A stretch of 64,000 bases of DNA from Candidatus Multivoradales bacterium (GTDB lineage: Bacteria > Acidobacteriota > Thermoanaerobaculia > Multivoradales > J023). The translations under genes were made by a program, and so were the position numbers. Of the stretch, positions 19,490 through 54,759 are shown in pieces; the first letter of the stretch is position 1, and the number at the start of each line of letters is the position of its first letter. The notes beneath the pieces are model-generated. The model did not search any database. It was not told the DNA's origin and saw only the letters and a program-made list of their open reading frames with translations. The stretch covers positions 224,001-288,000 of the forward strand of contig CBDFLE010000006.1 of NCBI GenBank assembly GCA_965248925.1, in the 5' to 3' direction.

Positions 19490-19543
19490 ACTGCTCTCCT
19501 TCCCGCCGAGAATTCGGTTGCCCCTGAGGATACCGGAAGCCTC

Positions 19544-20557
19544 TCAAACTGCGAAACCCCGTAAGGCGTCGAGCTTTGCCGATGCCGCGCCACTCTTGAG
19601 GGCGTGCCGAGCAGCAACCAGGCCGGCGTCAAGGTCGGCGGCCACCCCGGCCACCCACAGTGCCGCGCCGGCATTGAGCGCGGTGATATCGGCCAAAGGA
19701 CCCTTCTCACCGGCAAAGATGCGTCGCAGCAAGGCAGCGTTGTCCGTGGCGCTGCCTCCAAGTAGGTCTTGCGGGCGCGCCAACTCGATGCCCAACTCGG
19801 TGGGGTCCAGGTCCCAGACTTGGACTCCTCCGTCGCGCACTTCGGCCACTCGGGTGGGGCCGGTGATGGTGATCTCGTCGAGACCATCGCTGCCGTGCAC
19901 CACCAATGCATGCTCACTGCCCAGCGCAGCCAGCACCTGGCCCACTTTGTCCACCAGGCTGGCGGAATAGACTCCCAGCAGCTGCCGCCTAGCGCCCGCT
20001 GGATTAGTCAGCGGACCGAGCACATTGAAGATCGTACGCAAGCCCAGGGCTTGGCGCACCGGCATCACCTCTTTCATCGCCGGGTGCAGCCTAGGGGCGA
20101 AGAGGAAGGCGATGCCGATTTCGTCGAGGGCGCGGCCGGCGGTCTCGGGTACGGTCTCGATCGACACCCCTAGCGCCGCCAACACATCGGCCGAGCCCGA
20201 CTTGCTCGACACCGAACGATTGCCATGCTTGGCCACCGGCGCGCCAGCCGCCGCTGCCACCAGAGCGGCGGCGGTGGAGATGTTGAAGGTGCCCTTGCCG
20301 TCGCCACCGGTGCCACAGGTGTCGACCGCCTCGGGGCGGTGATGGGAAATGGCGATCACCCGACGGCGCATGGCGGTGGCGGCGCCAGCAATCTCGGCCG
20401 CGGTTTCACCTTTCATCCGCAGGGCGACCAGTAGAGCCGTCTTGTGGACTTCGGACAATTCGCCATCCATCAATCGGCCAAAGAGGGTCTCGACCTGATC
20501 GCTGGTCAGATCCTGGCCGTCGATCAAGCGTTCGAGGGCGGTGTGGGTGTCTATCAT
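19544..20557 (-). CDS. trpD: Anthranilate phosphoribosyltransferase
   Basis: DTCGTGGDGKGTFNIST, KHGNRSVSSKSGSAD, FNVLGPLTNP, DGLDE. Confidence 0.97.
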   Translation of the reverse strand: MIDTHTALERLIDGQDLTSDQVETLFGRLMDGELSEVHKTALLVALRMKGETAAEIAGAATAMRRRVIAISHHRPEAVDTCGTGGDGKGTFNISTAAALVAAAAGAPVAKHGNRSVSSKSGSADVLAALGVSIETVPETAGRALDEIGIAFLFAPRLHPAMKEVMPVRQALGLRTIFNVLGPLTNPAGARRQLLGVYSASLVDKVGQVLAALGSEHALVVHGSDGLDEITITGPTRVAEVRDGGVQVWDLDPTELGIELARPQDLLGGSATDNAALLRRIFAGEKGPLADITALNAGAALWVAGVAADLDAGLVAARHALKSGAASAKLDALRGFAV

Positions 20558-21165
20558 CGGCAACCCTCTTTCGTAGGGGCGCGCGGCTGTGCGCCCTCTT
20601 CCCCACAGAGGTCCAGGAAGTTCCGCAGCAAAGTCGGTCCGTCCGGAGTCAGCACGGATTCGGGATGGAATTGCACCCCCCAATAGGGCAGCTGGCGGTG
20701 GCGCAGGGCCATCAAGGTCTCGTCTTCGCTCCACGCGATAGCCGCCAGCTCCTCAGGAACAGTGCGCGGATTGACCGTCAGGCTGTGGTAGCGGGTCGCC
20801 TGGAAAGGATTGGGCAAGCCAACAAACAGCGGGTCTTCGTCGAAGCGTATTCGCGAAGTCTTGCCATGCATCAGCTCAGCGGCGCCTTCGACCCGCGCGC
20901 CGCAGGAAGTGCCCAGGCATTGATGCCCCAAACAAACCCCGAGTACGGGCAACTCAGGTCGGGCGGCCAGCAAGTCGACACACACCCCAGCGTTCTCCGG
21001 CCGGCCGGGGCCAGGTGAGAGCACCACCCCGCGATCCTGGCGCGCCAGGATCTGCGCCACATCCAGAGCATCGTTGCGCACCACCTCGACCTCGGCACCC
21101 GCTTCGCCGAGCAGCTGCACCAGGTTGTAGGTGAAGGAGTCGTAGTTGTCGATCAGCAGAATCAT
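20554..21165 (-). CDS. trpG: Anthranilate synthase component II (glutamine amidotransferase)
   Basis: IDNYDSFTYNL, LSPGPG, GVCLGHQ, RYHSL, QFHPES. Confidence 0.95.
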   Translation of the reverse strand: MILLIDNYDSFTYNLVQLLGEAGAEVEVVRNDALDVAQILARQDRGVVLSPGPGRPENAGVCVDLLAARPELPVLGVCLGHQCLGTSCGARVEGAAELMHGKTSRIRFDEDPLFVGLPNPFQATRYHSLTVNPRTVPEELAAIAWSEDETLMALRHRQLPYWGVQFHPESVLTPDGPTLLRNFLDLCGEEGAQPRAPTKEGCR

Positions 21166-22625
21166 TCGACTTGCTCCAGCTGGCGCGCCAGCTCTACCGC
21201 GGCGAGCAGGGCCGCTGCCTTGTCCTCGGTCTCACGCTGCTCCAGGCGCGGATCACTGTCGGCGACGATGCCAGCGCCGGCGGTGACCGAGGTTTCGCCA
21301 TCCTTGAACACCAACGTGCGGATGGTGAGGCAGGTGTCGACGTCGCCCGAGAACGACATGTAGCCCACCGCCCCAGCGTAGGGACCCCGGGCCTCGGGCT
21401 CGAGTTGATCGATGATCTGCATGGCGCGAATTTTCGGGGCTCCCGACACCGTACCGGCGGGAAAAGTGGCCAGCAAGGCGTCCAGCGGCGAATGGTCCTT
21501 GGCGAGATCGGCAACCACACTGGAAACGATGTGCATGACGTGGCTGTAACGCTCGATCTCCATGAAGCTGGCCACCTCGACACTGCCGATGGCGGCGACC
21601 CGGCCCAAATCATTGCGGCCCAGATCGACCAGCATGACGTGCTCAGCACGCTCCTTGGGGTCGGCTAGCAGCTCTTCGGCCAACTGCCGATCGGCCGCCG
21701 CGTCGGCACCGCGCGGGCGAGTGCCGGCGATCGGCCGGTTTTCTATTCTGCTGCCAATCTTGCGCACCAGCATCTCTGGCGAAGCACCCACCAGAGTGGC
21801 CTCGGGCAATTCCAACATCACCATATAGGGACTCGGGTTGACCACCCGCAAGGCACGGTAGAGAGCCAGCGCTGGAGGTGAATTCTCCACCGTGAAACGC
21901 CGCGCTAGCACGACCTGGAAGATATCGCCAGCGGTGATGTAGCGCTTCGCCCGGCGCACCGCGGCACGGTAGGACTCGCCGTCGAGGCTGACCCGCGATG
22001 GCAGCAGGTCGGCAGTCTCGCGCTGGCGACAGTCACTAGCCGGCATGGTCACCGCGCGGGTGCTGGCTTCGGCGGTCAGCAGCTGCTCGACCCGGCCCAA
22101 ACGACGCTTGGCGGCACTAGCGCTGACCTCGCCTTCAATCTCGTTGGCCATCACCACCACCCGCTGCCGCGCATGGTCAACGGCCACCACCGTATCGAAA
22201 CGACCCAGCTCGACAATCGGCAGGCCGAAGGGATCCGGCGGCCGCTCGCCCAAGCGCTCGACCAAACGGATAGTGTCGTAGCCGAAGAAACCCACCCAGC
22301 CACCGGTGAAGGGGATCGCGCCGCGCGCCGCCCGCACCCGGCCGAGAATCTCCGCTAGCGCCTCCAGCGGCGGCCCTTCGAAGATCTCCCGCCGCTGCCG
22401 ATAGCGCTCCACCACCACCCGGTTCTCGTACACTCGACAGATCTCCATCGGACCAGCGCCGAGAAAACTAAAGCGCGACACCTGATCGCCCCCGCTCACA
22501 CTCTCGAACAAGAAGCGCACCTTGGAGATGCTCTCGAGCCGGCGGTAGACCGCCAACGGCGTCAAGCTGTCAGCCAGTAGCTCGCGAGCATGGACGGTTG
22601 CCTGGCGTGGCGGCCCCGAGTTCAT
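21162..22625 (-). CDS. trpE: Anthranilate synthase component I
   Basis: GDIFQVVL, NPSPYM, KERAEHVMLVDLGRND, FPAGTVSGAPKIRAM, AGAGIVADS. Confidence 0.96.
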   Translation of the reverse strand: MNSGPPRQATVHARELLADSLTPLAVYRRLESISKVRFLFESVSGGDQVSRFSFLGAGPMEICRVYENRVVVERYRQRREIFEGPPLEALAEILGRVRAARGAIPFTGGWVGFFGYDTIRLVERLGERPPDPFGLPIVELGRFDTVVAVDHARQRVVVMANEIEGEVSASAAKRRLGRVEQLLTAEASTRAVTMPASDCRQRETADLLPSRVSLDGESYRAAVRRAKRYITAGDIFQVVLARRFTVENSPPALALYRALRVVNPSPYMVMLELPEATLVGASPEMLVRKIGSRIENRPIAGTRPRGADAAADRQLAEELLADPKERAEHVMLVDLGRNDLGRVAAIGSVEVASFMEIERYSHVMHIVSSVVADLAKDHSPLDALLATFPAGTVSGAPKIRAMQIIDQLEPEARGPYAGAVGYMSFSGDVDTCLTIRTLVFKDGETSVTAGAGIVADSDPRLEQRETEDKAAALLAAVELARQLEQVE

Positions 22626-23263
22626 TTCGCCACCTCTTCAGGCTGCGGCCCTGACCCTTGATGCCGAGCCCGTAACTTGGCCGCCACCCGTTGCGGATCA
22701 ACCTCCCGCGCGGCCAGTAAGACCAACAAGTGATAAAGCAGGTCGGCAGCCTCATCAGCCAGTTGATCCCCATCTTGGGCCAGCGCCGCGATCACCGTCT
22801 CGGTGGCTTCCTCACCCACCTTCTGTGCCACCCGTTCGATGCCCTGCGCCAGCAACCGTGCGGTGTAGCTTTGCTCAGCATCGGCACCACGGCGCTCGGC
22901 GATCACCCGTGCCAACCAGCCGAGTTCGAGCGTTGCCGGATTGGGCTCGAAACAACTGCGGGTGCCGCGATGGCAGGTCGGACCCGCGGGCCGCGCCCGC
23001 AGCAGCAGAGTGTCGTGATCGCAGTCGGCGCACACCTCGACCACTTCGAGAGTGTTGCCCGAGGTCTCCCCCTTCTGCCACAGGCACTGCCGCGAGCGGC
23101 TCCAGAACCAGGCCCGGCCGGTCGCCAGGGTACGCTCGACCGCTTCCTGGTCGGCCCAGGCCAGCATCAGCACAGCGCCGCTGGTCTCGTCTTGCACCAC
23201 GACTGGCAACAGCCCTCTTGAGTCGTAAGTCAGGGCTGAGGCATCGATCTGATTCGTCTTCAC
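22622..23263 (-). CDS. hisIE: Bifunctional phosphoribosyl-AMP cyclohydrolase / phosphoribosyl-ATP pyrophosphatase
   Basis: [21 protein letters not shown] (HisI); [23 protein letters not shown] (HisE). Confidence 0.96.
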
Positions 23264-24081
23264 GGGCTCACCTCTCGCACCGGAAATCCTTCGTCTCGCA
23301 GATGCCGTTTGACATCGCCAACGCTGTATTGATGCTGATGAAAAATCGACGCCGCCAGCACCGCCGCAGCACCGGCGCCGAGAGCAGCCGCCAGATGGGC
23401 CGGCCGGCCGGCGCCCCCCGAAGCGATCACCGGCACCGCCGTGCGACTGGAGATGGCGGCGAGCAGTTCGAGGTCGTAACCGTCCTGGGTGCCATCGCTG
23501 TCGATCGAGGTCAGCAAGATCTCACCCGCGCCTCGTTCGACCCCTGCGAGGGCCCAGGCGACGGCGTCGAGATCGCGGGCCTGGCGGCCACCGTGGGTGA
23601 CCACTTGCCAGCGCGGAGAACTGGCTGCGGCGGACTCGGCGGGCAAACGCCGGGCATCTACCGACAGCACCACGCATTGGGCACCGAAGCGCCGCGCCAG
23701 CTGGTCGAGCAACTCCGGCTGGTCGAGGGCAGCGGTGTTGATCGCCACCTTGTCGGCGCCGGCCCGCAGCAAGCGTTCAGCATCCGCGACCTGGCGCACG
23801 CCGCCGCCCACCGTCAGCGGTACGAACACTTGCTCGGCGGTACGAGCCACCCATTCGAGATCTGTATCGCGGCGTTCCGGCGCCGCGGTGATGTCGAGAA
23901 AGACAATCTCGTCGGCGCCTTGGCCGGCATAGCGCGCAGCCGCCTCGGCCGGATCGCCCTGGTCGACCAAATTCTGAAACCGCACCCCCTTGACCACCCG
24001 TCCGGCGCGGACATCGAGGCAGGGAATCACCCGAAAAGTGAGCCCGCTGCCGGCGATGCCCCGCGAGTCCAGGGCGCGCAT
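23260..24081 (-). CDS. hisF: Imidazole glycerol phosphate synthase cyclase subunit
   Basis: [49 protein letters not shown]. Confidence 0.97.
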
Positions 24082-24809
24082 CAGGCGTCCTCCGCCGCCG
24101 TCGCGGCGGCCATGGCCTCTGCCAATGAGAAAAGGCCTTCGTAGAGCGCCTTGCCGACAATCGCCCCGGTCACTCCGGCAGTGGTCGCCGCGGCCCGTAA
24201 ATCATCCAGGCTGGCGATGCCGCCGGACACCAGAGCCGGCAAGCCAGTGAGTTCGGCGACCCGGGTGGTAAGGGGCAGATTGGGACCTTCCAGCATGCCG
24301 TCGCAGTCGATATCGGTCACCAAGACCGCTGGGCAGGGCAGCCCCTGCAAGCGCTGGCAGAGTTCCTCCAGACTAACTCCAGCGGCCTCGCGCCAACCGG
24401 CCACACGGGGCTCGCCAGCGGCGGTCTCCACCGCTGGCACCAGCTGACCGGGATGGGCCGTGGCCAGCTGGCGAAAGAGGTCGAAATCGCGGGCCACCAT
24501 CGAACCCAGCACCACCCGTTCACAACCCGCCGCCAGGGCTCGTTCGACCGCCGGCTGATCCTTCAAACCGCCACCGAGTTCGATCCGTGGCTGGCCGCGG
24601 GAAACCAGCTCCTCGATCAACGCGAGCTGCTGCCGCTCACCGAAAGCGGCATCGAGGTCGATCACGTGCACCAGCTCGACACCTTCAGCGGCGTACTCGG
24701 ACAGCACCCACGAGGGATCGAGGCCATAGAGGGTCGTGTGGCGGTCATCACCATGCTCCAGACGCACCACCTGGCCGTGGCGCAGGTCGATTGCCGGAAT
24801 CAGCTGCAC
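24081..24809 (-). CDS. hisA: ProFAR isomerase
   Basis: [44 protein letters not shown]. Confidence 0.95.
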
Positions 24810-25453
24810 CGAGCCTCCTCCCCAGGGTTGGCCAATTCTAAGAAGTTGGCCAACAGCCGCAGGCCCACCGCGCCGCTTTTCTCAGGATGAAACTGGGTGC
24901 CCAGCACTCGGCCACGAGCGGCAATGGCGGCGAAAGCGCTGCCGTGCTCGGTGCGCGCCAAGCAAAGCTCAGCGGGTACTTCGAAGGCCGCGAAACTGTG
25001 GACGAAGTAGACGTAGCTTCCTTCCTCCAGGCCGGCCATCAGTGGATGATCGGCAATCCCCAGCAAGCGATTCCAACCAATATGTGGCAGCGGCACGCCA
25101 GCCGGTAGCTGGCGCACCGTGCCGGGCAGCAAATCGAGGCCATCGGTGCGGCCGAATTCCTCGCCGGCGGTAAACAGCAGTTGATAGCCAACGCAGATGC
25201 CGAGCAGCCAGGCGCCCGCGGCAACCGCCTCCCGCAACGCCAGTTCGAGAGGGCCGCGCAGCGCCTCGCGGGGCGGCTTGAAGGCACCAACTCCGGGCAG
25301 GATCAAGCAGCGGGCAGCGCCGACGACCGCCGGCTCGGCTGAGATCCGCGGATCACTGCCGAGGTGCCGCAGCGCTCGCGCCACATTGCCCAGGTTGCCA
25401 ACCCCGGCATCGATCACCACCACTTGCGGGCGGTCTGTTGCCGACCGGTTCAT
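24800..25453 (-). CDS. hisH: Imidazole glycerol phosphate synthase glutamine amidotransferase subunit
   Basis: GNL, LPGVGAF, GICVGYQ, PHIGWN, YFVHSF, QFHPEKS. Confidence 0.97.
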   Translation of the reverse strand: MNRSATDRPQVVVIDAGVGNLGNVARALRHLGSDPRISAEPAVVGAARCLILPGVGAFKPPREALRGPLELALREAVAAGAWLLGICVGYQLLFTAGEEFGRTDGLDLLPGTVRQLPAGVPLPHIGWNRLLGIADHPLMAGLEEGSYVYFVHSFAAFEVPAELCLARTEHGSAFAAIAARGRVLGTQFHPEKSGAVGLRLLANFLELANPGEEARCS

Positions 25454-26091
25454 TCGCTCAGCGTCCCCTTGGTCGAAGGGACCTCAGCGGCCGTCACTTC
25501 CCCGCCAGCGGTGTTCACCCTCAAGGCCACCGCCTGGCGCAAGGCCAGGGCCACTGCCTTGAACGCCGCCTCAGCGGCATGGTGCGCATTGCGCGCGGTC
25601 AGCACATCGAGATGCAGGGTAAAGCGCCCACGGTCGGCGAAAGCGTGAAAGAAATCGGCGATCAGGGTGAGTGGAAATTCGCCGGTCACCCAGCTATGTT
25701 CGATCTCCGCCGGCACCTGATAGGCGAAAAAACCACGGCCGGAAAGATCCACCACCGCCCGTGCCAAAGCCTCGTCGAGGGGGGCGTAGGCATGGGCAAA
25801 ACGCACCACGCCCCGGCGCTCGCCGAGGGCTTGACGCAGAGCATCTCCGAGAGCGATACCCACATCCTCGACGGTGTGGTGCAGATCGACGTGGACATCC
25901 CCCGCGGCAGAAATATCCAACCCCAACCCACCGTGAGTGGCCAGAGCGTCGAGCATGTGGCCGAAAAAGCCGTTGGGCACTTGCAGCGACTTCTGTTCAG
26001 GGTGGTCGAGATCGAGGGTCAGTTGCACCGAAGTCTCGCCGGTGCGGCGATCGACCGAGGCACGGCGCGGATCGGCTGCTGCGTTGCTCAT
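25450..26091 (-). CDS. hisB: Imidazoleglycerol-phosphate dehydratase
   Basis: R.T.ET, HML, HHTVED, PLDEAL, NAHHAAEAAFKA, PSTKG. Confidence 0.97.
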   Translation of the reverse strand: MSNAAADPRRASVDRRTGETSVQLTLDLDHPEQKSLQVPNGFFGHMLDALATHGGLGLDISAAGDVHVDLHHTVEDVGIALGDALRQALGERRGVVRFAHAYAPLDEALARAVVDLSGRGFFAYQVPAEIEHSWVTGEFPLTLIADFFHAFADRGRFTLHLDVLTARNAHHAAEAAFKAVALALRQAVALRVNTAGGEVTAAEVPSTKGTLSE

Positions 26092-27182
26092 GACGGATCC
26101 TCCGAAGTCGCGGCAAGAATCTCCACCAGCGCAGCACGGGTATCGCGCAACGCCCGGCCATGGCCGACCGAGATTCGCCAGCAGTCACTCAAGCCCGGAT
26201 AGCCGCTGACATCGCGCACCCGAATGCCGCGACCTTCCAAGCCGGCGAGGGTCGCGGCCGCGCGCCGATCGCGGACCAACAAGAAATTAGCCTGGGACGG
26301 GAACACCTCCAGCCCCTGCTCGCTGAGCATTTCCACCCACTGCCGACGCCGGCCGAGGATCACCCGCACTCGCCGCTCGACAGCATCCTTGGCGGCTAGC
26401 GCTACCTCACCGGCCAAAGCGCTCGCTCGACCGACGTTGTAGGGCAGCTTGACCTTGATCAGCTCACTGACCAGGCGCGGATCCGCCAGCAGGTAGCCCA
26501 ACCGCTGCCCGCCCAAGGACCAGGCCTTGGAAAAAGTGCGAAAGATCACCAGGTGGGGATAGAGATCGAGCAGCGGGCGATAGTCGTGACGACAAAATTC
26601 AGCGTAGGCATTGTCGAGCAGTAGCGGCGCTTCCAACCGCTCGAGCAATGCCGCGATCCGGGCCGGCTCGGCGGCGTCGCCAGTCGGATTGTTGGGGCTG
26701 CACAAGATCACCGGCCGGCGAGGGTCGCGCTCGATCTCGGCCGCCAGCTCAGCCAGCGGCAGCCGCAGATCGGCCGCTGGGCCGACGAAGCGCGGCGTGG
26801 CGGCGGCGCGCAGCACGAACATGCGGTAGAGACTGAAGCTGGGCAGCGTCGCCAACACCTCTCCACCGGGCCTGGCCAGCGCCTCCAGCGCCACCCCGAG
26901 CAGCTCGTTCGAACCGTTGCCAACCAAGATACCGGCCGCCGGCCAATCGTTGTGGCGACCGAGAGCAACGCGCAGATCGTCGGCATGAAAATCCGGATAG
27001 TCGGCCCAGGCGGTGGCCAACCAACGCGCCGCGATCCGCCGTTTGATCCGCCCCGGCAGCTCCCAGGGCACTTCGTTCTGGTCCAGCTTGTGACGGCAGG
27101 GGGACAGATCGAGGTGGTATTCCTTCAGCTGGCGCAGTTCGTCGCGCACCAAGATAGCCGGGTCGAGTCGCGCACTGGCCAC
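26088..27182 (-). CDS. hisC: Histidinol-phosphate aminotransferase
   Basis: KLDQNE, GNGSNE, CSPNNPTG, DNAY.EF, RTFSKAW..G.RLGY. Confidence 0.95.
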   Translation of the reverse strand: MASARLDPAILVRDELRQLKEYHLDLSPCRHKLDQNEVPWELPGRIKRRIAARWLATAWADYPDFHADDLRVALGRHNDWPAAGILVGNGSNELLGVALEALARPGGEVLATLPSFSLYRMFVLRAAATPRFVGPAADLRLPLAELAAEIERDPRRPVILCSPNNPTGDAAEPARIAALLERLEAPLLLDNAYAEFCRHDYRPLLDLYPHLVIFRTFSKAWSLGGQRLGYLLADPRLVSELIKVKLPYNVGRASALAGEVALAAKDAVERRVRVILGRRRQWVEMLSEQGLEVFPSQANFLLVRDRRAAATLAGLEGRGIRVRDVSGYPGLSDCWRISVGHGRALRDTRAALVEILAATSEDPS

Positions 27183-27184
27183 CC

Positions 27185-28504
27185 TCAGTCCTCCTCGGGC
27201 GCCACTCGCAGGCGCGCTGAGCGGGCGTGCGCCGGCAGCCCTTCAGCGTCGGCCAGCACCGCGGCGGCCTCGGCGGCGGCGGCGGCGGCGGTGGCCGTGA
27301 AGTGAATTTGGTGACCACGACGAACGAAGTCCTCCACCCCGAGGGCCGAGGCGAAACGCGCCGAACCCGCGGTGGGCAAGACATGGCTTGGGCCGGCGAG
27401 ATAGTCGCCAAAAACTTCCGGCGTCGTCGCCCCGACAAATACCGCCCCAGCCGCCACCACTCGCTCAGCAAGAGTCTCGGCCGCCGCTCCCACCAACTGT
27501 AGATGCTCGGGGGCCAAGCGCTCCACCAGAGCCTGTGCTGCTGCCATGTTGGCCACCACGAACGCGCGCCCGCCCGCCGCCAAGGCAGCGCGGGCAGTCT
27601 TGCGGGTCGGTAGGTCACGCAGCTGGCGCCGCAGCTGGCGATCGACCTGCGAAGCAAAGCGGCGCTGCTCGGTGATCAACACCGCCACCGCCTGCGGATC
27701 GTGCTCGGCCTGGGCCAGCAAGTCGGCGGCGACCCAAGCTGGATCGGCCCCCTGGCTGGCGACGATCACCACCTCGCTAGGACCTGCGAGGCCATCGATC
27801 GCCACGGTTGTCGACACCAGGTGTTTGGCGGCGGTCACCCAGGCATTGCCCGGTCCGACAATCTTGTCCACCCGCTGAATGGTCTCGGTGCCGTAAGCCA
27901 GGGCGGCCACCGCCTGCGCTCCACCCATCCCCCAAACCTCGGTGATGCCCAGCCGACCCAGGGCCCAGCGCAGCGCCGGGTTGGCGGCCAGGGCTTGGGG
28001 CGGGGTCGCCACGACGATCTCCTGCACCCCGGCGAGCCGCGCCGGAATGGCGGTCATCGCCACCGTCGACGGGTAGGCGGCGCGCCCACCCGGCACATAG
28101 AGGCCGACCCGGCGCAGCGGCAGGCGGCGCTCGATCAGCTCGACACCGTCGACTTCTAATTCGAATCCGGGGTGAACTTGTTGCTGGTGATAGCTCTCGA
28201 TCGCCGCCATGGCGCGCTCGAAAGCGGCGACGAAACCGGTCGGCAGAGCGCTATCTTCCCCCTCCCCACCACTCCCGACCGCGGGCACGAAGCGCAGCTC
28301 CTCAACCTGTTTGACACTGACGCCGTCGTACTTCCGCAGCGCTTTCAACAGAGCTTTATCGCCCCTTCGGCGCACCCTGTCCAGCAACCGAGCGGTGCGC
28401 TTGAGCACCACCGGGTCCAGCAGCCGGTCGGCGCGACGGACCAGGGCTTCGATCGCCGCTTGACCGCGCTTCGAAGTCGCCATGCGAATCTGTAGCTCAG
28501 CCAT
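27185..28504 (-). CDS. hisD: Histidinol dehydrogenase
   Basis: GLYVPGG.A.YPST, GGAQAVAALAYGT, KIVGPGN, AGPSE, DLLAQAEHD, APEHL, GPSHVLPT. Confidence 0.97.
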   Translation of the reverse strand: MAELQIRMATSKRGQAAIEALVRRADRLLDPVVLKRTARLLDRVRRRGDKALLKALRKYDGVSVKQVEELRFVPAVGSGGEGEDSALPTGFVAAFERAMAAIESYHQQQVHPGFELEVDGVELIERRLPLRRVGLYVPGGRAAYPSTVAMTAIPARLAGVQEIVVATPPQALAANPALRWALGRLGITEVWGMGGAQAVAALAYGTETIQRVDKIVGPGNAWVTAAKHLVSTTVAIDGLAGPSEVVIVASQGADPAWVAADLLAQAEHDPQAVAVLITEQRRFASQVDRQLRRQLRDLPTRKTARAALAAGGRAFVVANMAAAQALVERLAPEHLQLVGAAAETLAERVVAAGAVFVGATTPEVFGDYLAGPSHVLPTAGSARFASALGVEDFVRRGHQIHFTATAAAAAAEAAAVLADAEGLPAHARSARLRVAPEED

Positions 28505-29150
28505 CTTCCACCTCCCACTGCAGCTCGACCAGGCCGGCTGCTTCGAGCCGATCGAGCCAGCCATTGAGCACCTGACGATGCCTCTGATAGGCCGCCCGAC
28601 CGACCACCAAACAAGGCTGCACCCGACGGGCCACTTCGAGTTCCACCAGACCGTTCTCACGCAGCGTGCCGCCGGTCTGGACGATGTCAAGAGCCACTTC
28701 CGACAGATCCAAAATCGGCCCTAACTCGACCGAGCCGTAGAGCTTGAAAACCTCCGCCCCCCAAGGCTTGGAGCGCAGCCAGCGGCGGGCGGTGCGGGGG
28801 TATTTGCTGGCGAGCCGCAATTGCTGACCGGGCCGCGGCAAAGTGCCCGGACGGCCGATCAGTGACAGCCGACTGCCGCCCTCGGTGAGCCGCGCCGGCA
28901 CCAGCAGATCGCCGCCACCCACCTCCTCCAAGACATCACTGCCGACAATGCCGCAGTCGGCGATGCCGTGGCCAACATAGAGGGGCAGGTCCCAGTCCTT
29001 GAGCAACAGAACCTCGACCCCATCGCCGGGCAACCGCTGCTGCAACTTGCGCCCACTGGTGTCAAGCCCGGCGAAAGTCAGGCCGGCGGCGCGCAGCGCT
29101 TCCAGCGCCGGTCGCTGATTGCGCCCCTTGGGCAGCCCCCAGCGAATCAC
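28497..29150 (-). CDS. hisG: ATP phosphoribosyltransferase, short form
   Basis: GLPKGR, D.P.YV..G.AD.GIVG.DVL.E, ASKYP, KLYGSVELGP, DIVQTG.TLRENGL. GTG start overlaps the hisZ stop. Confidence 0.95.
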   Translation of the reverse strand: MIRWGLPKGRNQRPALEALRAAGLTFAGLDTSGRKLQQRLPGDGVEVLLLKDWDLPLYVGHGIADCGIVGSDVLEEVGGGDLLVPARLTEGGSRLSLIGRPGTLPRPGQQLRLASKYPRTARRWLRSKPWGAEVFKLYGSVELGPILDLSEVALDIVQTGGTLRENGLVELEVARRVQPCLVVGRAAYQRHRQVLNGWLDRLEAAGLVELQWEVEDG

Positions 29151-30139
29151 CGCCCTTCCTCCTCTGCTCCGGACGGAGCCAACCGGCCCAGACTGAGAGA
29201 GAAGCCCGCGGCGGTGACCTCGGCCCCGAGGGTGTAGAATAGGCGATCGTAGCGCCCGCCAGCGCCTATTTCTTGCGACCCCTCGGCAGCATAGGCACGA
29301 AAGATCAGGCCATCGTAGTAGGCCCCCGGCCCGAGTTCGGGACGTAACCTCGGCTCGAGGATCTGGTCGGCGAACTCGGCCAAATCGACCCGCAGCTGCA
29401 ACCTCGGATGGCTCTCTCCAAGCCGCTCCACCAAGACCATTAGCCGCCGCAGCTGCGCTACTGCGATCTCGCCAAGGCACTCGACGTCGGCCGGCACACC
29501 CTCCCGAACCACTTGCAACAACCCTGGCGACATGTCACGCACCGCGGCGCGATCACGGCGTAAGACTGCCGCCGCCAGCCGTCCCACTTGCTCCACTCCA
29601 GACTCTGCCAGCGGCTGATCGAGGGCACCGGCAAAGCCCAGCACCACCAACGGCCGCCGTTGCTCATTGCTGAGCGGTGGGCAAGCCGCTTCTAGCAGGG
29701 CCAAGAAACTCTCAAGCGCAAGCTCTTCGCCAGCCGTACCCTCCATGCCAAGAACTTCGGCTCCCACCTGGTAGAGTTCCCGCTGGCGACCGGCGCGTTC
29801 CTCTTGGTAGCGCAGCACATCGCCGCGGTAGTAGAGCTTCAGCGGCAACTCCAAGAACTGCAACCGTGGCGCCAGCAAGCGGGCTAACATGGGGGTGAAA
29901 TCTCCCCGCAGCGCCAACACCTCCCCGTCGCGGTCCACCAAGCGGTAGAGCTGCTCACGACTAGCCGGACTGAGCAAGGCCTCGTAAGGCGCCAGGTAGT
30001 CCACCACCGGCAGCACAACCTCAGAAAAACCCTCGGCTTCGAGCCTTGCCACCAAACGCTGCTCCAAGGCACGACGACGGCGCGCACTACCCATCATCAA
30101 AGCTTCGACACCGGTCGGCAGAGAAGCAGAGATTCTCAT
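29147..30139 (-). CDS. hisZ: ATP phosphoribosyltransferase regulatory subunit
   Basis: LP.G, LR.DFT...AR, YY.G.V.R, RE..QVGAE, YY.G..F, GGRYD. Sits next to short-form hisG. Confidence 0.92.
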   Translation of the reverse strand: MRISASLPTGVEALMMGSARRRRALEQRLVARLEAEGFSEVVLPVVDYLAPYEALLSPASREQLYRLVDRDGEVLALRGDFTPMLARLLAPRLQFLELPLKLYYRGDVLRYQEERAGRQRELYQVGAEVLGMEGTAGEELALESFLALLEAACPPLSNEQRRPLVVLGFAGALDQPLAESGVEQVGRLAAAVLRRDRAAVRDMSPGLLQVVREGVPADVECLGEIAVAQLRRLMVLVERLGESHPRLQLRVDLAEFADQILEPRLRPELGPGAYYDGLIFRAYAAEGSQEIGAGGRYDRLFYTLGAEVTAAGFSLSLGRLAPSGAEEEGR

Positions 30140-31719
30140 TGCGCCTGCCCCTCCGGCAGGCGCAGCAAGCGGCGCGCAAGATCTTCGTCGAGGCTGTAGC
30201 GGGTCATCAGCAAGAATTGCGGTAGGGCCTGGGCGAACAGCGCCTCACGCCCCGGGACCACGGCTATACCTCGTGCTTCGAGGGCCTCGACCAAGGCAGT
30301 CTCATGTCGACCGTAGACCAAATCCACCACCGTTGCGTCGCTGGCCACGGCCGCTACGTCGAAGGGCAAAGGATCGTTCTCGCCATGGCCCAGTCCGGTC
30401 GCATGGATGATGATGTCGAAACCTGAAGGGTCGAAGGCGTCGAGGGCGACAAAGGGCAAAGCAAGTTCGGTCGAGGCTTTCTTGCCCCGCTCCTCACCGC
30501 GGTTGACCAGTGTGACTCGAGCCCCTTCGAGCTGAAGACCGTAGGCCGCGGCTCGGCCAGCGCCACCACAGCCGACAATCGCCGCCCGGACGCCTCGGAA
30601 AGCCACCCCCCAGCGCCGCAACGGCTCGACAACTCCCTCCGGATCCGTGGTCTCGGCCTCCCACACTTCGCCACTCTTGACCAAGGTGTTGGCGGCGCAG
30701 ATGTGCTGTGCCCGCGGACTCGAGGCACCAGAGACGGCCAGCGCAACTTCCTTGTAAGGGGCGGTCACCGACAGGCCACGCAGCGGAAACCCGAGATCTT
30801 CCAGGCTGCCCGACTCGACAACTTCGATCCAAAAATCACCGAACGACTCGATATGGAACGGCAGATAAAGATAAGGCAAGCCGAGTTCCCGATAAGCACC
30901 GTTGTGCAGCCGCGGCGACAACGAATGCAGCACCGGCCGGCCGGCAATGCCGTAAAGCCCTTCGATCGGCGGCAACTCGGGGAGGCCATAGTCGCGGCGC
31001 AAACGCGCTACCGACAGCTGACCCGGCGCGGCCGGGGTTTCGCTAGCGGATCCGTAGACCCAAGGGCTACCCAGCCGCGGCGCTAGCAGGCGGGTCCAGG
31101 TGGCGATCTCACCCACGCCAAAAGAAATCACATCCTCACGCCCCAGCGAACGCAGCAAGGCCAGCGCGCGGATGCCGTCGCCCGACCCGGCAGCGATCGG
31201 GATCACCTTGTAGTAGCGCGCCTCGGTCGAGGTCATGTGCTCGAAACGCTGACGCAACGCCGTCAAGTGAATCGCCGGACCGTGCCACGAGATCAACCGC
31301 TTGCTCGCCGGCACCTGCACTAGGAGTTCGGGAAAAAGATCCCGCTCAGCTTCCAGATCCACCAGGTCGTAGCCCTCGGCCGCTGCACTCAAGCGCTGCT
31401 GGCGCCGTGCCTTGCCCGCCTCGGATTTGCCACCCTCCGCCCGGCTGCGCAAAGTGTAGAGCAAGCGCCCAGAGAAATGCTGGCGCAGAAACTCGACCTC
31501 GAGATCGCCCACCAAGTCGCCTCGTACTTCGAGCACGTCAGCGAGCTGTGACAGCTCTTTCAGGTCGGCACCGTCACTGGCCGGTGGATGGGTCAGCGTA
31601 GCAACCAGCTCGGTGCGCTGTTGTGGGTCGCGAACGCTCCGACGGTCGTTTCTAGAGCCGTCGTTGCTGACGCTGTCGTCGTTGGATGTGCGATCAGACA
31701 CCAAAAAACCTCTTTCCAT
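30136..31719 (-). CDS. aroDE: Bifunctional type I 3-dehydroquinate dehydratase / shikimate dehydrogenase (AroD-AroE fusion)
   Basis: N-terminal E.R.D, TLRSRAEGG, ISWH, APGQ (DHQase I); C-terminal HSLSPRLHN, SVTAPYKE, ANTL, GCGGAGRAAA, DLVY. Exact start uncertain. Confidence 0.88.
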   Translation of the reverse strand: MERGFLVSDRTSNDDSVSNDGSRNDRRSVRDPQQRTELVATLTHPPASDGADLKELSQLADVLEVRGDLVGDLEVEFLRQHFSGRLLYTLRSRAEGGKSEAGKARRQQRLSAAAEGYDLVDLEAERDLFPELLVQVPASKRLISWHGPAIHLTALRQRFEHMTSTEARYYKVIPIAAGSGDGIRALALLRSLGREDVISFGVGEIATWTRLLAPRLGSPWVYGSASETPAAPGQLSVARLRRDYGLPELPPIEGLYGIAGRPVLHSLSPRLHNGAYRELGLPYLYLPFHIESFGDFWIEVVESGSLEDLGFPLRGLSVTAPYKEVALAVSGASSPRAQHICAANTLVKSGEVWEAETTDPEGVVEPLRRWGVAFRGVRAAIVGCGGAGRAAAYGLQLEGARVTLVNRGEERGKKASTELALPFVALDAFDPSGFDIIIHATGLGHGENDPLPFDVAAVASDATVVDLVYGRHETALVEALEARGIAVVPGREALFAQALPQFLLMTRYSLDEDLARRLLRLPEGQAQ

Positions 31720-35389: not shown

Positions 35390-36838
35390 TCAGTAATTCT
35401 GGTCTAAACGCCTCAGTAGCCGGCGCACCGTGTCGATCAACTCACCGCGCTGCACTTCCAACTGACCGGGACGCTCAGCCAGCCACTCCTGTCGATCTTC
35501 GATGTCAGCAGCGATATGCCGCCCTACATCCATATCCTTGAGCGTCACGATGCCCTTGGCATGCTCGTCCGAGCCCATCAGCAAGGCGATCGGAATCTCC
35601 AGCTGGTCGGCGTACTTGAGCTGCTTGCCGACATTACGACCGCCGCCGAGGTACAACTCGGCCGGGATGCCAGCGCGACGCAGCTCGAAAGTCATCGCCA
35701 GGTACTCATCGACCAATGAGGGATCCATGCGCGTCACCAACACTCGCGAAGTCGACTTGCGAGTCTGTACCTTGCCGAGATGCTCGAGCGCCGCCAACAG
35801 CCGATCGACCCCGATCGAGGCACCGGTGGCGGGCATCGGCTGCCCCGAGAAACGTTGCACCAAACCGTCGTAGCGGCCGCCACTGAACACCGAGCCAAAC
35901 TGCGGCGCATCGGTCAACACCGCTTCCCAGATCGGTCCGGTGTAATAAGCCAGCCCGCGAGCGATCGACAAGTCGAGCCCGACCTTGTCGTCGCCATAGC
36001 CCAGCGCATATAGATGGCGCGAGATCGTCGCCACGATGCCGATTTCCTGCTCGGCGCCGTCGACCCCGGAAAAAGTCTCCCTCAGCTGTTCGACAACCTC
36101 ATCCCGCGAGCCCTCGACCTGCAAGAACTGGCCGATCTTGTCAACTTGTCCAGCGCCCAATCCAAGGCCGCGAATGCGGTCCCCCGAGCGGTCCGTATAG
36201 CCCTCGGTAAGCTCCAGCCGAACCTTCTCCAACCCCACCTTGTCGAACTTGTCCAGAACGCGGAACACGTCGCTGGCGCGGTCGCTGGAGATCTCTGCGA
36301 AACGCAGCAAGACATTGAGCAAGCCGCGGCTCGAATAGCGCACCCGATAAGCCTCGATACCGAGGGCCTCCAAGGTGTCGCACATACCGGCCAGGATTTC
36401 GGTATCGGCGATCTCCGAAGGCGCTCCCACCGAATCGAGATCGAATTGGATGAATTCGCGAAAGCGCCCCTTGTCGGGCTTATCGCCGCGCCACACTTCG
36501 GCCACTTGATAGCGGCGGAAAGGCCGCGGCAAATCGCGGTGCTGAGAGACAAACCGGGCCAGCGGTACGGTGAGGTCAAAGCGCAGCCCCAGCTCCTCCT
36601 GCTCCCGGTTGCTGACCGTGAAGATCGACTTGGCGGCCTCCTCCCCCGAATCCGCGCCCAGCAGCACATCGAGGTACTCCACCGCCGGGGTCGAGATCGG
36701 CAGAAAGCCATAGCCCTCATAGACCCCCCGAATAGTGTCGATCATCCACTGCCGCGCCAACTGCTGCTGCGGCATCAAATCGCGCAAACCCCGCGACGTT
36801 CTAGGTTTGACTCGCTTCGGCTTGACTCGCTTTGCCAT
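35390..36838 (-). CDS. hisS: Histidine--tRNA ligase
   Basis: G.RD, LRFDLTVPLAR, GRFREFIQFD.D, ARGLAYYTG, SGGRYDGL, G.SIGVDRL, KQLKYAD. Confidence 0.97.
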   Translation of the reverse strand: MAKRVKPKRVKPRTSRGLRDLMPQQQLARQWMIDTIRGVYEGYGFLPISTPAVEYLDVLLGADSGEEAAKSIFTVSNREQEELGLRFDLTVPLARFVSQHRDLPRPFRRYQVAEVWRGDKPDKGRFREFIQFDLDSVGAPSEIADTEILAGMCDTLEALGIEAYRVRYSSRGLLNVLLRFAEISSDRASDVFRVLDKFDKVGLEKVRLELTEGYTDRSGDRIRGLGLGAGQVDKIGQFLQVEGSRDEVVEQLRETFSGVDGAEQEIGIVATISRHLYALGYGDDKVGLDLSIARGLAYYTGPIWEAVLTDAPQFGSVFSGGRYDGLVQRFSGQPMPATGASIGVDRLLAALEHLGKVQTRKSTSRVLVTRMDPSLVDEYLAMTFELRRAGIPAELYLGGGRNVGKQLKYADQLEIPIALLMGSDEHAKGIVTLKDMDVGRHIAADIEDRQEWLAERPGQLEVQRGELIDTVRRLLRRLDQNY

Positions 36839-36976: not shown

Positions 36977-37053
36977 TGGTACTGAAGCCCGGAATTGAAC
37001 CGGGGACCTCTTGATCCACAATCAAGCGCTCTAACCAACTGAGCTACTTCAGC
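36977..37053 (-). tRNA. tRNA-His(GUG), copy 1 (no encoded G-1; U72, A73)
   Basis: Cloverleaf GCTGAAG-TA-GCTC-AGTTGGTTA-GAGC-G-CTTGA-TTGTGGA-TCAAG-AGGTC-CCCGG-TTCAATT-CCGGG-CTTCAGT-A-CCA, with encoded CCA. Confidence 0.97.
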
Positions 37054-37064
37054 GCCGGGGGGCG

Positions 37065-37094
37065 ATGGTAGTCGCTGCGTGCCACCGTTGTAAA
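37065..37094 (-). promoter_or_regulatory. Sigma70-type promoter of tRNA-His copy 1 (probably also hisS)
   Basis: TTTACA-N18-TACCAT on the minus strand; conserved upstream of both tRNA copies while the spacer diverges. Confidence 0.65.
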
Positions 37095-37139
37095 GAGGGC
37101 CGCCGCAAGGGCTGGCGCCGTGCTGCACACATTCAAACC

Positions 37140-37763
37140 TCAGCGAGTCGCTTGAAAATGCATGGCATCGCGGCCCCAGGCCAGCGCTCCGCTCTTCCAC
37201 CCCGCTGACTGGAAGATATCGATCACCTCGATCGGCATGGTGGCCGGCGCCGGCCAGGGAACCCGGAATCCGTTCTTCTTCGGATCGAGGTCGATCGCCA
37301 TACCCCAGGCATGGGTCGACCATGCGGAATCGCTACCGCGCTGTTTGCGGAAAGCGTAGACCCCGCCGTAGAGGTGCATCCTGGCGGCCTCGAGGGAGGC
37401 TCGATCGCCATAGTGATCGCGAATCGCTTCCAGGGCGCCAGTGAGCGAGTCGGCGACCCGGCGGTGGCATCGGGTTCGGGTCACCGTGGTGCCGTGGTCC
37501 CAAGCCAGCAGCATTGGGTACGGCAGGTTGATCATCACCAGATTGTGTTCGCCGGGTTCGCCATAGAACGCTTGCAGAGAGCGTTCGTCGGGCGCTGGCC
37601 AAGGCGACAGCTCAGCGGCTCCCGAGAACCCCGTCTGGGCTCGCCAGGCGGCCTCAGTTTCCGCGCCGGCCCAGCCGTCAATGGCGACGCTCTGCCCTTC
37701 CTTTTGCAGCCAGCGTTGGTTGAGTTCGGCAAAAGACTCGTTGGCTTGGTGCTTCTCAATCAT
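37140..37763 (-). CDS. M15-family peptidoglycan peptidase with degenerate PG-binding N-terminus (endolysin-like)
   Basis: GG.YAFR..RG...WSTHAWG.AIDLD and D.MHFQ zinc motifs; N-terminal Q..L...IDG..G..T..A; AGGAGG RBS upstream of the ATG at 37763. Confidence 0.85.
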   Translation of the reverse strand: MIEKHQANESFAELNQRWLQKEGQSVAIDGWAGAETEAAWRAQTGFSGAAELSPWPAPDERSLQAFYGEPGEHNLVMINLPYPMLLAWDHGTTVTRTRCHRRVADSLTGALEAIRDHYGDRASLEAARMHLYGGVYAFRKQRGSDSAWSTHAWGMAIDLDPKKNGFRVPWPAPATMPIEVIDIFQSAGWKSGALAWGRDAMHFQATR

Positions 37764-37818
37764 CGGCGCCCTCCTTGGCCCGGTCATCGAGTTAGGCTTC
37801 CTGGAGAAGGGGGGGGGA

Positions 37819-37895
37819 TGGTACTGAAGCCCGGAATTGAACCGGGGACCTCTTGATCCACAATCAAGCGCTCTAACCAACTGAGCTACTTCAGC
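37819..37895 (-). tRNA. tRNA-His(GUG), copy 2 (identical to copy 1)
   Basis: Same 77-nt sequence as 36977..37053. Confidence 0.97.
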
Positions 37896-37907: not shown

Positions 37908-37937
37908 ATGCTAGTCGCTGCATGCGGCGGTTGTAAA
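37908..37937 (-). promoter_or_regulatory. Sigma70-type promoter of tRNA-His copy 2
   Basis: TTTACA-N18-TAGCAT on the minus strand. Confidence 0.65.
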
Positions 37938-39635: not shown

Positions 39636-39654
39636 ACACTTGGGAGACTGTCTC

Positions 39655-39936
39655 ATGACCACCGCCCAGATTCGCGCCCTCAGCACTCACCGTCGCCGCC
39701 TCAAAGAGCGCGGCTTGGCCCGAGTCGAAGTCCAGGCCCGCCGCGACGACGCCGACCTGCTGCGGGCGCTGGCCAGCCGGTTGCGCGACGATCCAGCCGA
39801 TGACCTACGCCACCGCTTGGCGGAGCTACTCTCCAGCCCCAACAAGCCAAGCTTGAAAGCTCTCCTCGCCGCCGCGCCACTCGCAGATCTCGACTTGGAG
39901 CGCCAACGTGATTTGCCTCGGGACATCGAGCTATGA
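39655..39936 (+). CDS. Putative antitoxin
   Basis: HRRRLKERGLARVEV...LKALLAAAPL.DLDLER.RD..RDIEL; ATGA overlap with the PIN toxin. Confidence 0.75.
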   Translation: MTTAQIRALSTHRRRLKERGLARVEVQARRDDADLLRALASRLRDDPADDLRHRLAELLSSPNKPSLKALLAAAPLADLDLERQRDLPRDIEL

Positions 39937-40361
39937 GCCAGACAGCTGGCTATCTTCTCGACACCAACATCATTTCGGAAATCGGCAAGGGTCAGCACTG
40001 CGACCAGCGAGTGGCAGGTTGGTTCGAGAGGCTCGACGACAGCGAACTTCACCTCAGCGTGCTGGTGATTGGCGAAGTTCGCAAAGGGATCGAGTCCCTA
40101 CGGCCGCGAGACGCCGCCCGCGCCGCGGGTATCGAAGCTTGGCTAGGCCAGATCGAGAGGGCCTTCGCCGGCCGCATTCTGCCGATCAACACCCTGGTGG
40201 CCGATCTCTGGGGCCGGCTCGCGGCACGCCGCACCCTGCCGGTCATCGATAGTCTGCTGGCCGCCACCGCCCTCGCCCACGGCCTAGTCTTGGCCACCCG
40301 CAATGTCGATGACCTGATCGACAGCGGCGCCCGGATGTTGAATCCCTTCGAGGAGAGGTGA
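39933..40361 (+). CDS. vapC: PIN-domain toxin, VapC family
   Basis: YLLDTNIISE, GEVRKGI, DSLLAATA..HGL..ATRN..D, NPF. Confidence 0.92.
   Translation: MSQTAGYLLDTNIISEIGKGQHCDQRVAGWFERLDDSELHLSVLVIGEVRKGIESLRPRDAARAAGIEAWLGQIERAFAGRILPINTLVADLWGRLAARRTLPVIDSLLAATALAHGLVLATRNVDDLIDSGARMLNPFEER
40327..40352 (+). repeat. 26-bp exact direct repeat, copy 1 (3' end of vapC)
   Basis: GCGCCCGGATGTTGAATCCCTTCGAG also occurs at 47885..47910. Confidence 0.9.
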
Positions 40362-53371: not shown

Positions 53372-54666
53372 GACTCTCCTCAACTTGCAGTGGGTACCGG
53401 AGGCTGTAGTTTGATGCCGCCACAGTTGAGGAAGATCATGGCAGAGAGTGCTTGATGGGAGTGGAAACCAAAAGCACGTCGGGCGATCATTCTGATCTTC
53501 CCGTTGATGCCTTCGACGAGTCCATTGGTGAGTCGTGTTCTGATGTAGGCGAGAATGCCGACCCGGTGTTTGCGGATCGTTCGAGCGGCCTTGACAAAGG
53601 GCTTGATCTTAGATCTCGACGCCCAAGCCAGCCATTCTCCAAGTTCCATCTCTGCCCGCCAGGGTTGGCGATAGTCGAGGGCTTGAGCCAACGTCTCCTT
53701 GAGGAGGTAAGCCCGGTACAGCCGCCGGTTCTCAGCTTGGATCTCCGCCAGCTTACTGCGCTGGTTGCGACTCAAGTTCCAAGGATTCTTGAGCAGGACG
53801 TATCGCGTGCTCTTGACGGCTCGGGCCCTCTCGGGATCGATCGCCAGCTCGCGGACGATGCTGACCGTCTCGATCTTCTGGCACTGCTCCTCGCCGAGGA
53901 GTTCGAAGAAGGGCGCCAGAGTCTCGGAACTCTTGCCTTCGCCCGTCCAAACGACGCGACGGCGGTCATGGTCGACGACAATCGTCAAGTACCGATGCCG
54001 CTTACGATAGCTGAACTCATCGATGCCAATCCGGCGCAGGCCCAGGAGGCGCTCAGGATCGAGGCGACGTGCCACGACCCGCTTGACGATCGAACCGACG
54101 GTCTGCCACGAGATGGCGAGGAGTCGTTGGACTTGGGTCTTGTCAGTGACTTGTGCCAGATAAGCGGCCAGCTCTTCAAAGTCGTAGGAGAAGCGGCTAC
54201 CCCGGTCGGCCCATGGCACCTGCTCGACGCGCACACCGCAATCGCGGCAGTTCACCCGCCACGGCTCATGAATCAGCTCCACAGACGCCCGTCCCCACGG
54301 GACATGCCGCCACCGGCGCAGAGGTCGGCGGTCATACCGCGAGGCCTTCCGGCCGCAGTGCCCGCACCGGGAAATACGCCAGGTCGGCCGGACCTGGATC
54401 GCGAGTCCACCCTCGACGGTGAACGCGACGTCTTCGACGTACATCTTCGTGACAGCCAGAAGGCGACGGAATACAGTAGTGATGCGCATGGGGTGACCCT
54501 TCCTCCTCGGTTTTGTAGTACTTCCAAGGAGAACAGGAAATCCTGTGCGTTTTCAACTACTTACAGCCTCATCATTTCGCCATGCTTGCTGCCGGCCGCC
54601 CTCGCCCGTCTACGGGCGGCCGGCAGCAAGTGTGGCGAAATCCACCACTCCTATTTGAGGAGAGCC
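53372..54666 (-). mobile_element. ISL3-family insertion sequence (internally deleted)
   Basis: Imperfect terminal IRs GACTCTCCTCAACTTGCAGTGG and GGCTCTCCTCAAATAGGAGTGG; no target duplication seen. Confidence 0.85.
53380..54489 (-). pseudogene. ISL3-family transposase with in-frame internal deletion
   Basis: Zinc finger (C..C, C..CGV..E.VPWA), IGIDEFSYRKRH.Y and TNGLVEGIN.KI are present. The DM...FDRFH block expected after ETVSI is missing. Confidence 0.75.
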
Positions 54667-54759
54667 GAATTTCTGACAAGGAGTCGAGACCCCTCTGTGC
54701 CAATGTAAGTGAGACACTCAAGTACCGAGAAATTAGTGAGGGTGTGGAGAGCAATCACC

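Follow-up and report, generated by a model that had tools for sequence, protein, structure and literature searches.

tRNA-His and hisS genes at the locus

The 64,000-nucleotide stretch analysed here, referred to as the window (positions 224,001 to 288,000 of contig CBDFLE010000006.1, assembly GCA_965248925.1, Candidatus Multivoradales bacterium), harbors exactly two tRNA genes, both identified by ARAGORN as tRNA-His(GTG) on the minus strand. They are followed on the same strand by hisS, the gene of histidyl-tRNA synthetase (HisRS), and the identity elements that link these tRNAs to this enzyme are the subject of the present analysis. A guanosine at position -1 (G-1) is the textbook near-universal identity element of tRNA-His. 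In the canonical bacterial system, exemplified by E. coli and T. thermophilus, G-1 is encoded, forms a pair with C73, and is retained by RNase P. The genes and sites of the locus are the following:

35390..36838, minus strand: hisS, 482 amino acids, TIGR00442 match of 360.5 bits (cut-off 286.75), motif-2 loop WRGDKPDKGRFREF, member of the A73-associated clade described below
36977..37053, minus strand: tRNA-His(GTG) copy 1 (ARAGORN; Rfam RF00005), C-1, G1:U72, A73, encoded CCA, 9-nt D loop
37065..37094, minus strand: sigma-70-like promoter match TTTACA-18-TACCAT, its -10 hexamer ending 11 nt before tRNA copy 1, in the duplicated upstream segment
37140..37763, minus strand: open reading frame (ORF) of 207 amino acids between the tRNA copies, weak Peptidase_M15_4 match (Pfam PF13539, E = 2.1e-9 on the longer ORF 37140-37880)
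37819..37895, minus strand: tRNA-His(GTG) copy 2 (ARAGORN, Rfam), same sequence as copy 1, likewise with C at -1
37908..37937, minus strand: sigma-70-like promoter match TTTACA-18-TAGCAT before tRNA copy 2, within the duplicated segment

Read on the minus strand, both copies run 5′-..ggc-GCUGAAG...CUUCAGU-A-CCA, the lower-case letters preceding the tRNA. Their acceptor end comprises C-1, the pairs G1:U72, C2:G71, and U3:A70, the discriminator A73, and an encoded CCA. ARAGORN, Rfam, and the minus-strand reading thus confirm what had been noticed from the letters alone, namely C before G1, a G:U pair at 1:72, and A73 in both copies. The Rfam tRNA model scores 73.9 bits on either copy (gathering score 29; E = 7.7e-16). 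The 9-nt D loop, AGUUGGUUA, is the same as in the tRNA-His of Methylobacterium and Sinorhizobium. The two copies are 100% identical across the tRNA and belong to a duplicated unit of ~128 nt that consists of the tRNA-His and ~45 nt upstream (85% identity). Both -1 positions are covered without differences by unitigs from four DNA runs, which stem from one sample and are not independent of the assembly. Promoter-like sites were found twice against 0.3 expected from shuffles, as consensus matches only, with -10 hexamers ending 11-12 nt ahead of the tRNA-His genes. The 207-residue ORF between the copies, for which an NCBIfam search gave no match, is probably a passenger gene outside the identity system. 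Another genome, G079 (family f14; L154/L159), also has hisS immediately preceded by two tRNA-His copies in tandem, so the duplication at this locus recurs.

The start of hisS was picked by N-terminal alignment with relatives. The resulting ATG follows tRNA copy 1 on the same strand after 138 nt, and no terminator-like site was found between the two genes; tRNA-His and hisS may be co-transcribed.

A single histidine system in an acidobacterial genome

A 5.2-Mb contig carries the locus, within a genome of 6 contigs and 7,980,589 bases (62% G+C, 96.92% complete). ARAGORN identifies 48 tRNA genes in this genome, covering all 20 amino acids and selenocysteine, with tRNA-His represented by the two window copies only. 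A 3′-half pattern for any CCA-encoding tRNA-His likewise gave no match in the whole genome beyond these two. The sequence-only reading had proposed a check for a canonical G-1/C73 tRNA-His elsewhere in the genome; none was found by ARAGORN or by the pattern, and the U72/A73 copies in the window are the sole tRNA-His genes. In several genomes, a second pattern match, seemingly a second GUG tRNA, turned out to be tRNA-Leu(GAG), and a similar match in the window's order looks by eye like tRNA-Pro(GGG). The window hisS encodes the sole HisRS above the NCBIfam cut-off in the genome.

In yeast and humans, tRNA-His has A73 and no encoded G-1; Thg1 adds G-1 after transcription, and the cytoplasmic HisRS needs it. 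A Thg1-like guanylyltransferase was the other gene to be looked for, and a six-frame search of the genome, at its 96.92% completeness, matched neither the N-terminal (PF04446) nor the C-terminal (PF14413) domain of Thg1, while a positive control genome responded. The genome encodes a bacterial type-A RNase P RNA (294.7 bits).

The impression that the rest of the window does not look alphaproteobacterial is borne out by marker genes. Ribosomal protein L2 has its nearest named relatives (80-83% identity) in metagenome-assembled genomes (MAGs) labelled Acidobacteria, Acidobacteriota, or Thermoanaerobaculia, with two deviating labels, 'bacterium' and 'Deltaproteobacteria bacterium'. Those of the host HisRS (66-75% identity) are labelled Acidobacteriota, Holophagales, or Thermoanaerobaculia. 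Because of these relatives of L2 and HisRS, the host is, as judged by sequence, a member of Acidobacteriota and not an alphaproteobacterium.

Distribution within Acidobacteriota

A full-length U72/A73 tRNA-His is present in 18 of the 23 members of the window's family and in four genomes of families f2 and f4. The base at -1 varies among these 22 loci (9 with G, 11 with T, and one each with A and C). In the same order, families f8 and f9 carry g-1 together with C73. A U72/G73 variant of tRNA-His accompanies the same HisRS clade in family f7 (G029, G039) as well as in L088 and L076 (WOR-3). In an even sample of 401 Acidobacteriota genomes, 309 match the general tRNA-His 3′-half pattern and 14 the A73 pattern, all of the latter with U72. 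These carriers are distributed as follows:

single genomes G000 and G024
f14: 4 of 7
f22: 2 of 2
f68: 3 of 3
f38: 1 of 5
f95 and f102: one genome each

Together with two f7 genomes bearing G73, counted among the matches listed (150 of 360), at least 16 of the 401 genomes, from nine families, are devoid of C73.

The discriminator base covaries with the synthetase. Among 40 chosen genomes, 20 of the 21 with A73 or G73 encode a window-type HisRS (45-74% identity, E <= 1e-109); the exception, G061, is 83% complete and has its tRNA at a contig end. In the 19 comparison genomes, none of which has A73—C73 was seen directly in 12, the other 7 being only not A73—the best HisRS identity to the window enzyme is 37%. 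The HisRS of canonical Acidobacteriota of the same order and class are 27-37% identical to that of the window, and an A73-clade HisRS occurs in all three tested members of the window's family.

These data bear on the notion that the locus is a recent accessory insertion or a mis-binned stretch, with the real histidine system residing in unassembled sequence. The duplication of tRNA-His around an unrelated ORF, the transposase genes ~16 kb off, and the fact that the genome, 96.92% complete, is not closed would be compatible with such an origin. It is nonetheless highly improbable in view of the 5.2-Mb contig that carries the locus, the recurrence of the same tRNA-His type in the family and in two neighbouring families, the A73-clade HisRS of the family members tested, the position of hisS upstream of his and trp biosynthesis genes, and the finding of no canonical tRNA-His or HisRS in the genome.

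Sequence signature of the window HisRS

The motif-2 loop distinguishes the window HisRS from the canonical bacterial type. The latter reads FRYERPQxGRYR, with Gln in 6 of 6 sequences, whereas the window enzyme has WRGDKPDKGRFR, in which ERPQxGRYR is replaced by DKPDKGRFR. Replacement of this Gln by Gly in motif 2 is described as a hallmark of the alphaproteobacterial group, and the Gln as contacting G-1:C73, in PMC3937112. The residues at this position are distributed as follows:

99 non-alpha-type members of the A73 clade (not thinned): Asp 50, Gly 37, loop two residues longer 10, Ala 1, Glu 1, Gln 0
7 alpha-type enzymes: Gly 7
9 enzymes of other types: Gln 7, Ala 1 (G152), Lys 1 (Bacillus cereus plasmid copy)

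Most of the A73 clade has Lys instead of the Arg located two residues ahead of the Gln position, and 37 of the 99 non-alpha-type members possess the loop KPG-x-GRF, as in the alphaproteobacterial enzymes. In the ten sequences with the longer loop (DNPYEKRGRF), its length is that of human HisRS (DNPAMTRGRY); no Thg1 was found in G433, a genome with this loop. The alignment further reveals an insertion, G-x-x-D-x-SGD-x-I-x-G, and a C-terminal extension that are common to the window and alpha-type HisRS and absent from all other types. A further alpha-type insertion of ~8-9 residues is missing from the window HisRS, as judged from an alignment with five alphaproteobacterial HisRS rather than with published insertion definitions.

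HisRS phylogeny

A set of 120 HisRS sequences was taken from the loci and, after removal of the partial sequences L084 and L101, thinned at 82% identity to 71 rows, to which the window enzyme was added. The tree (72 rows, 487 columns) was computed with IQ-TREE under LG+C20 PMSF with careful search. Every HisRS that is tied to an A73/G73 tRNA-His or comes from loci found with the window's HisRS falls into one clade of 57 rows with a support of 100/99. This clade spans Acidobacteriota, Planctomycetota, Bacteroidota/Chlorobiota, Nitrospirota, WOR-3, and Coatesbacteria, and includes five alphaproteobacterial enzymes (Rhodobacter, Ruegeria, Paracoccus, Sinorhizobium, Methylobacterium) that form a monophyletic group (100/97). 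Wherever the tRNA-His of clade members is readable, it bears A73, rarely G73, and never C73. The window HisRS clusters with the enzymes of two family members and of one named Acidobacteriota MAG (98/85). Within the A73 clade, the HisRS of Acidobacteriota fall into at least five separate lineages, namely the main group, the alpha type, f22, f68, and f95 with f102, and family f1, that of the window, holds two HisRS lineages of the A73 clade. Two Acidobacteriota genomes, G001 (L179), from the window's own family, and G307 (L180), encode an alpha-type HisRS that joins the Rhodobacterales/Rhizobiales enzymes at 100/100 and is ~43-46% identical to the window HisRS. Within the larger clade, the alpha-type subclade is placed with a support of just 49/82, which is why no donor or direction of transfer is named.

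Database comparisons gave further relatives. In a plasmid/chromid collection, the best tblastn matches of the window HisRS were hisS genes of Rhodobacterales and Rhizobiales (37.5-44% identity over full-length matches, E 1e-85 to 2e-102), from the genera Pseudorhodobacter, Rhodobacter, Ruegeria, Paracoccus, Cereibacter, Sinorhizobium, Shinella, and Methylobacterium; Bacteroidales hisS in the same collection reached 32-34% identity at most. The nearest solved structures are 3net (2.5e-67) and human cytoplasmic HisRS (~2e-60), with the E. coli/T. thermophilus type at ~1e-26; trypanosome HisRS structures (E ~1e-37) are more distant than the human one.

The tree also speaks to the alternative that an acidobacterial lineage lost G-1:C73 by itself and that its HisRS adapted, so that the likeness to alphaproteobacteria would be an analogy. 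A 2017 paper (PMC5370408) states that a broad survey gave no support for HisRS transfer from eukaryotes and suggests convergence for the alphaproteobacterial case, and the Asp of the window enzyme differs from the Gly of the alpha enzymes. An independent origin is nevertheless very unlikely, given that the window- and alpha-type HisRS constitute one clade at 100/99, share the insertion and C-terminal extension, and in 37 of 99 non-alpha-type members even share the KPG-x-GRF loop, while canonical Acidobacteriota of the same order and class possess unrelated HisRS types at 27-37% identity.

Occurrence in other phyla and gene order

With the window HisRS as query, 80 named loci were found, 78 of which extend at least 250 nt upstream. 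A tRNA-His gene lies directly upstream of hisS on the same strand in 50 of the 78, divided among the phyla as follows:

Acidobacteriota: 39 of 44 loci
Planctomycetota: 4 of 13
Bacteroidota: 3 of 13
WOR-3: 1 of 1
Coatesbacteria: 1 of 1
Nitrospirota: 1 of 1
unclassified: 1 of 2
Chlorobiota: 0 of 1
Ignavibacteriota: 0 of 2

Forty-nine of these upstream tRNA-His genes could be classified. Of these, 48 have A at position 73 and one has G, with no case of C, and the first pair is G1:U72 in 47 and G1:C72 in two; the -1 base varies among the relatives (G, T, A, C). Most relatives have C3:G70, and some from Thermoanaerobaculia have a 7-nt D loop. Five genomes from other phyla—two of Planctomycetota and one each of Bacteroidota, Nitrospirota, and Coatesbacteria—possess a single tRNA-His with A73 beside hisS and a single HisRS above the cut-off, and the Thg1 N-terminal domain was not found in any of these five assemblies, which are listed with no completeness value. 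The suggestion of the sequence-only reading that this identity set may occur in another phylum thus holds for Acidobacteriota but was too narrow, since the set is found in several phyla and together with a HisRS of the alphaproteobacterial clade. A subgroup of Planctomycetota (L043, L047, L053, L080; MAGs of Phycisphaerae and Planctomycetales) has a G1:C72/A73 tRNA-His, which is the eukaryotic pattern. The Sinorhizobium and Methylobacterium records contain a U72/A73 tRNA-His far from hisS, and that of Methylobacterium is identical to the window tRNA-His at 65 of 77 positions.

The eukaryotic features in this set call for a comparison with the Thg1-dependent pathway, in which the tRNA would be transcribed without G-1, receive a G later from a Thg1-like or unrelated enzyme, and be charged by a HisRS that still depends on G-1. 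Such a pathway would accord with the closer relationship of the window HisRS to the human cytoplasmic enzyme (~2e-60) than to the E. coli/T. thermophilus type (~1e-26), with A73, given as the eukaryotic discriminator in PMC3064791, and with the Planctomycetota subgroup that has G1:C72/A73 and a motif-2 loop of human length. It is, however, improbable: the genome search matched neither Thg1 domain, and the five genomes of other phyla gave no match to the N-terminal one; the HisRS groups at 100/99 with the alphaproteobacterial enzymes and not with other types, the C. crescentus member of the published group being G-1-independent (PMC3064791); and both the Gln and the Arg of motif 2 are replaced. 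The Thg1-dependent system therefore resembles that of the window in A73, in the lack of an encoded G-1, and in a HisRS of the broad archaeal/eukaryotic-like group, but differs in that no Thg1 was found here and that the window HisRS belongs to a bacterial clade with G-1-independent alphaproteobacterial enzymes.

Proposed pathway and relation to known systems

The following pathway is proposed for the window. Transcription of either tRNA-His gene probably starts at a promoter of its own. Type-A RNase P would then cleave at the normal +1 position, since C-1 cannot pair with A73, and the mature tRNA-His would probably start at G1. By analogy with C. crescentus, whose HisRS was shown by assay to recognize the anticodon, A73, and U72 independently of G-1 (PMC3064791), the adjacent HisRS probably charges this tRNA via the GUG anticodon, A73, and the G1:U72 pair. 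The window likely holds a complete, self-sufficient histidine identity system without G-1:C73, with charging and the mature 5′-end deduced by homology.

The closest known counterpart is the alphaproteobacterial pair, which shares with the window the lack of an encoded G-1, A73, G1:U72, the GUG anticodon, a 9-nt D loop with an extra U20a, the lack of Thg1, and a HisRS of the same clade (100/99) that has lost the motif-2 Gln and carries the common insertion and C-terminal extension. The two differ in phylum, the window belonging to Acidobacteriota and the clade extending to Planctomycetota, Bacteroidota, Nitrospirota, WOR-3, and Coatesbacteria; in the additional ~8-9-residue insertion of the alpha type; and in gene order, with tRNA-His directly upstream of hisS in the window and far away in the two alphaproteobacterial records examined. 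The canonical bacterial system, which is used by f8 and f9 of the same order, has an enzyme of the same TIGR00442 family and the same anticodon. In contrast to it, the window system has neither G-1 nor C73, its HisRS is only 27-36% identical to the canonical acidobacterial enzymes, and the ERPQxGR loop is not encountered. The HisRS of Acanthamoeba castellanii and Trypanosoma brucei also act on tRNA-His without G-1, in the lack of Thg1 and with charging that leans on the anticodon; unlike the window enzyme, they are eukaryotic cytosolic proteins, described as having arisen separately (PMC4338351). As far as sequence comparison goes, the window system is a G-1-less tRNA-His/divergent HisRS pair of a known kind, located in new phyla and often present as an adjacent gene pair.

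Several observations weigh against this interpretation. The C. crescentus HisRS is the only assayed enzyme, and the charging rules and the mature 5′-end in the window are assigned by homology. The window HisRS is clearly related to eukaryotic cytoplasmic HisRS (E ~1e-60), enzymes that need G-1. It has Asp at the former Gln position where the alphaproteobacterial enzymes have Gly, and the window tRNA has U3:A70 instead of the C:G third acceptor pair that is conserved in the alphaproteobacterial group according to PMC3064791. The link between Gln and C73 is not absolute because the canonical genome G152 (family f46; L181, L196), which has a g-1/C73 tRNA-His and a HisRS of a third type with 37% identity to that of the window, has Ala at this position. 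Moreover, G is encoded at -1 in 32 of the 49 classified upstream tRNA-His genes and in 9 of the 22 loci of the window's own order, which speaks against a simple absence of G-1 throughout; relatives that encode G-1 may retain it opposite A73, the window having C at this position. Finally, tRNA-His does not lie within 1.5 kb of hisS in the 18 family relatives with a full-length tRNA-His locus, and the paired gene arrangement is therefore not universal.

With this restriction, tRNA-His and hisS behave as a transferable unit because the tRNA gene directly precedes hisS in many lineages. Repeated transfer and replacement would accord with the patchy distribution, the five or more HisRS lineages of Acidobacteriota, the two lineages within f1, and a HisRS tree that conflicts with the family labels. 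We infer that the two genes form a transferable cassette that appears to have replaced the canonical system repeatedly. The wider proposal, namely that a mobile, orthogonal tRNA-His/hisS cassette displaced the G-1:C73 system many times and that the alphaproteobacterial case is one acquisition from, or donation to, other bacteria, is put forward tentatively, with a little less than an even chance of being correct.

Neighbouring genes

The surroundings of hisS contain a paralogue of the synthetase and several unrelated genes. Synteny with named relatives past tRNA-His and hisS is almost nil, with one neighbouring ORF matched in 3 loci.

10060-14310, minus strand: 1416-residue protein combining an N-terminal TIR domain with a STAND NTPase (nSTAND1) and numerous WD40 repeats, a defence- or signalling-like architecture
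18692-31719, minus strand, downstream of hisS: aroD/aroE fusion, hisZ, hisD, hisC, hisB, hisH, hisA, then trpE, trpD, trpC
29147..30139, minus strand: hisZ-like HisRS paralogue at the head of the same-strand his biosynthesis run (hisD, C, B, H, A) located further downstream
39640-40361, plus strand: small ORF followed by a PIN-domain protein, resembling a VapBC-type toxin-antitoxin pair
53380-56291: ISL3-family transposase (53380-54489, minus strand) adjoining an IS3-like HTH_Tnp_1 and rve integrase pair (54709-56291, plus strand)
61519-63969, minus strand: 816-residue ORF fusing a reverse transcriptase domain (RVT_1) to Cas1

In annotated Rhodobacter and Ruegeria records, hisZ and hisG directly follow hisS.

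Significance

A G-1-less tRNA-His/divergent HisRS pair in Rhizobiales, Rhodobacterales, and Caulobacterales was reportedly described by Ardell and Andersson in 2006 and by Wang et al. in 2007, as related by papers citing them. A single alphaproteobacterial clade was regarded in 2011 as the only bacterial exception to G-1 (PMC3245924). The alphaproteobacteria are still the only bacterial exception in the passages considered from a 2015 paper (PMC4338351) and the one bacterial exception named in those from a 2023 review (PMC9976931). The literature searched, which did not include the 2006 and 2007 papers and their supplements, contained no account of this trait from any other bacterial phylum.

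The alphaproteobacterial case has long been viewed either as a unique synapomorphy or as acquired from eukaryotes. If the pair is indeed spread over at least six phyla and patchy within Acidobacteriota, the exception would be far commoner than thought. The G-1-less trait would then be weaker as a phylogenetic marker, and the origin of the alphaproteobacterial system would become a testable question of bacterial gene transfer. Should the cassette reading be true, the alpha-type HisRS of G001 and G307 would mark further transfers. The same distribution would also provide a broad set of naturally occurring HisRS/tRNA-His pairs that are orthogonal to the E. coli type and could be of use in genetic-code engineering.

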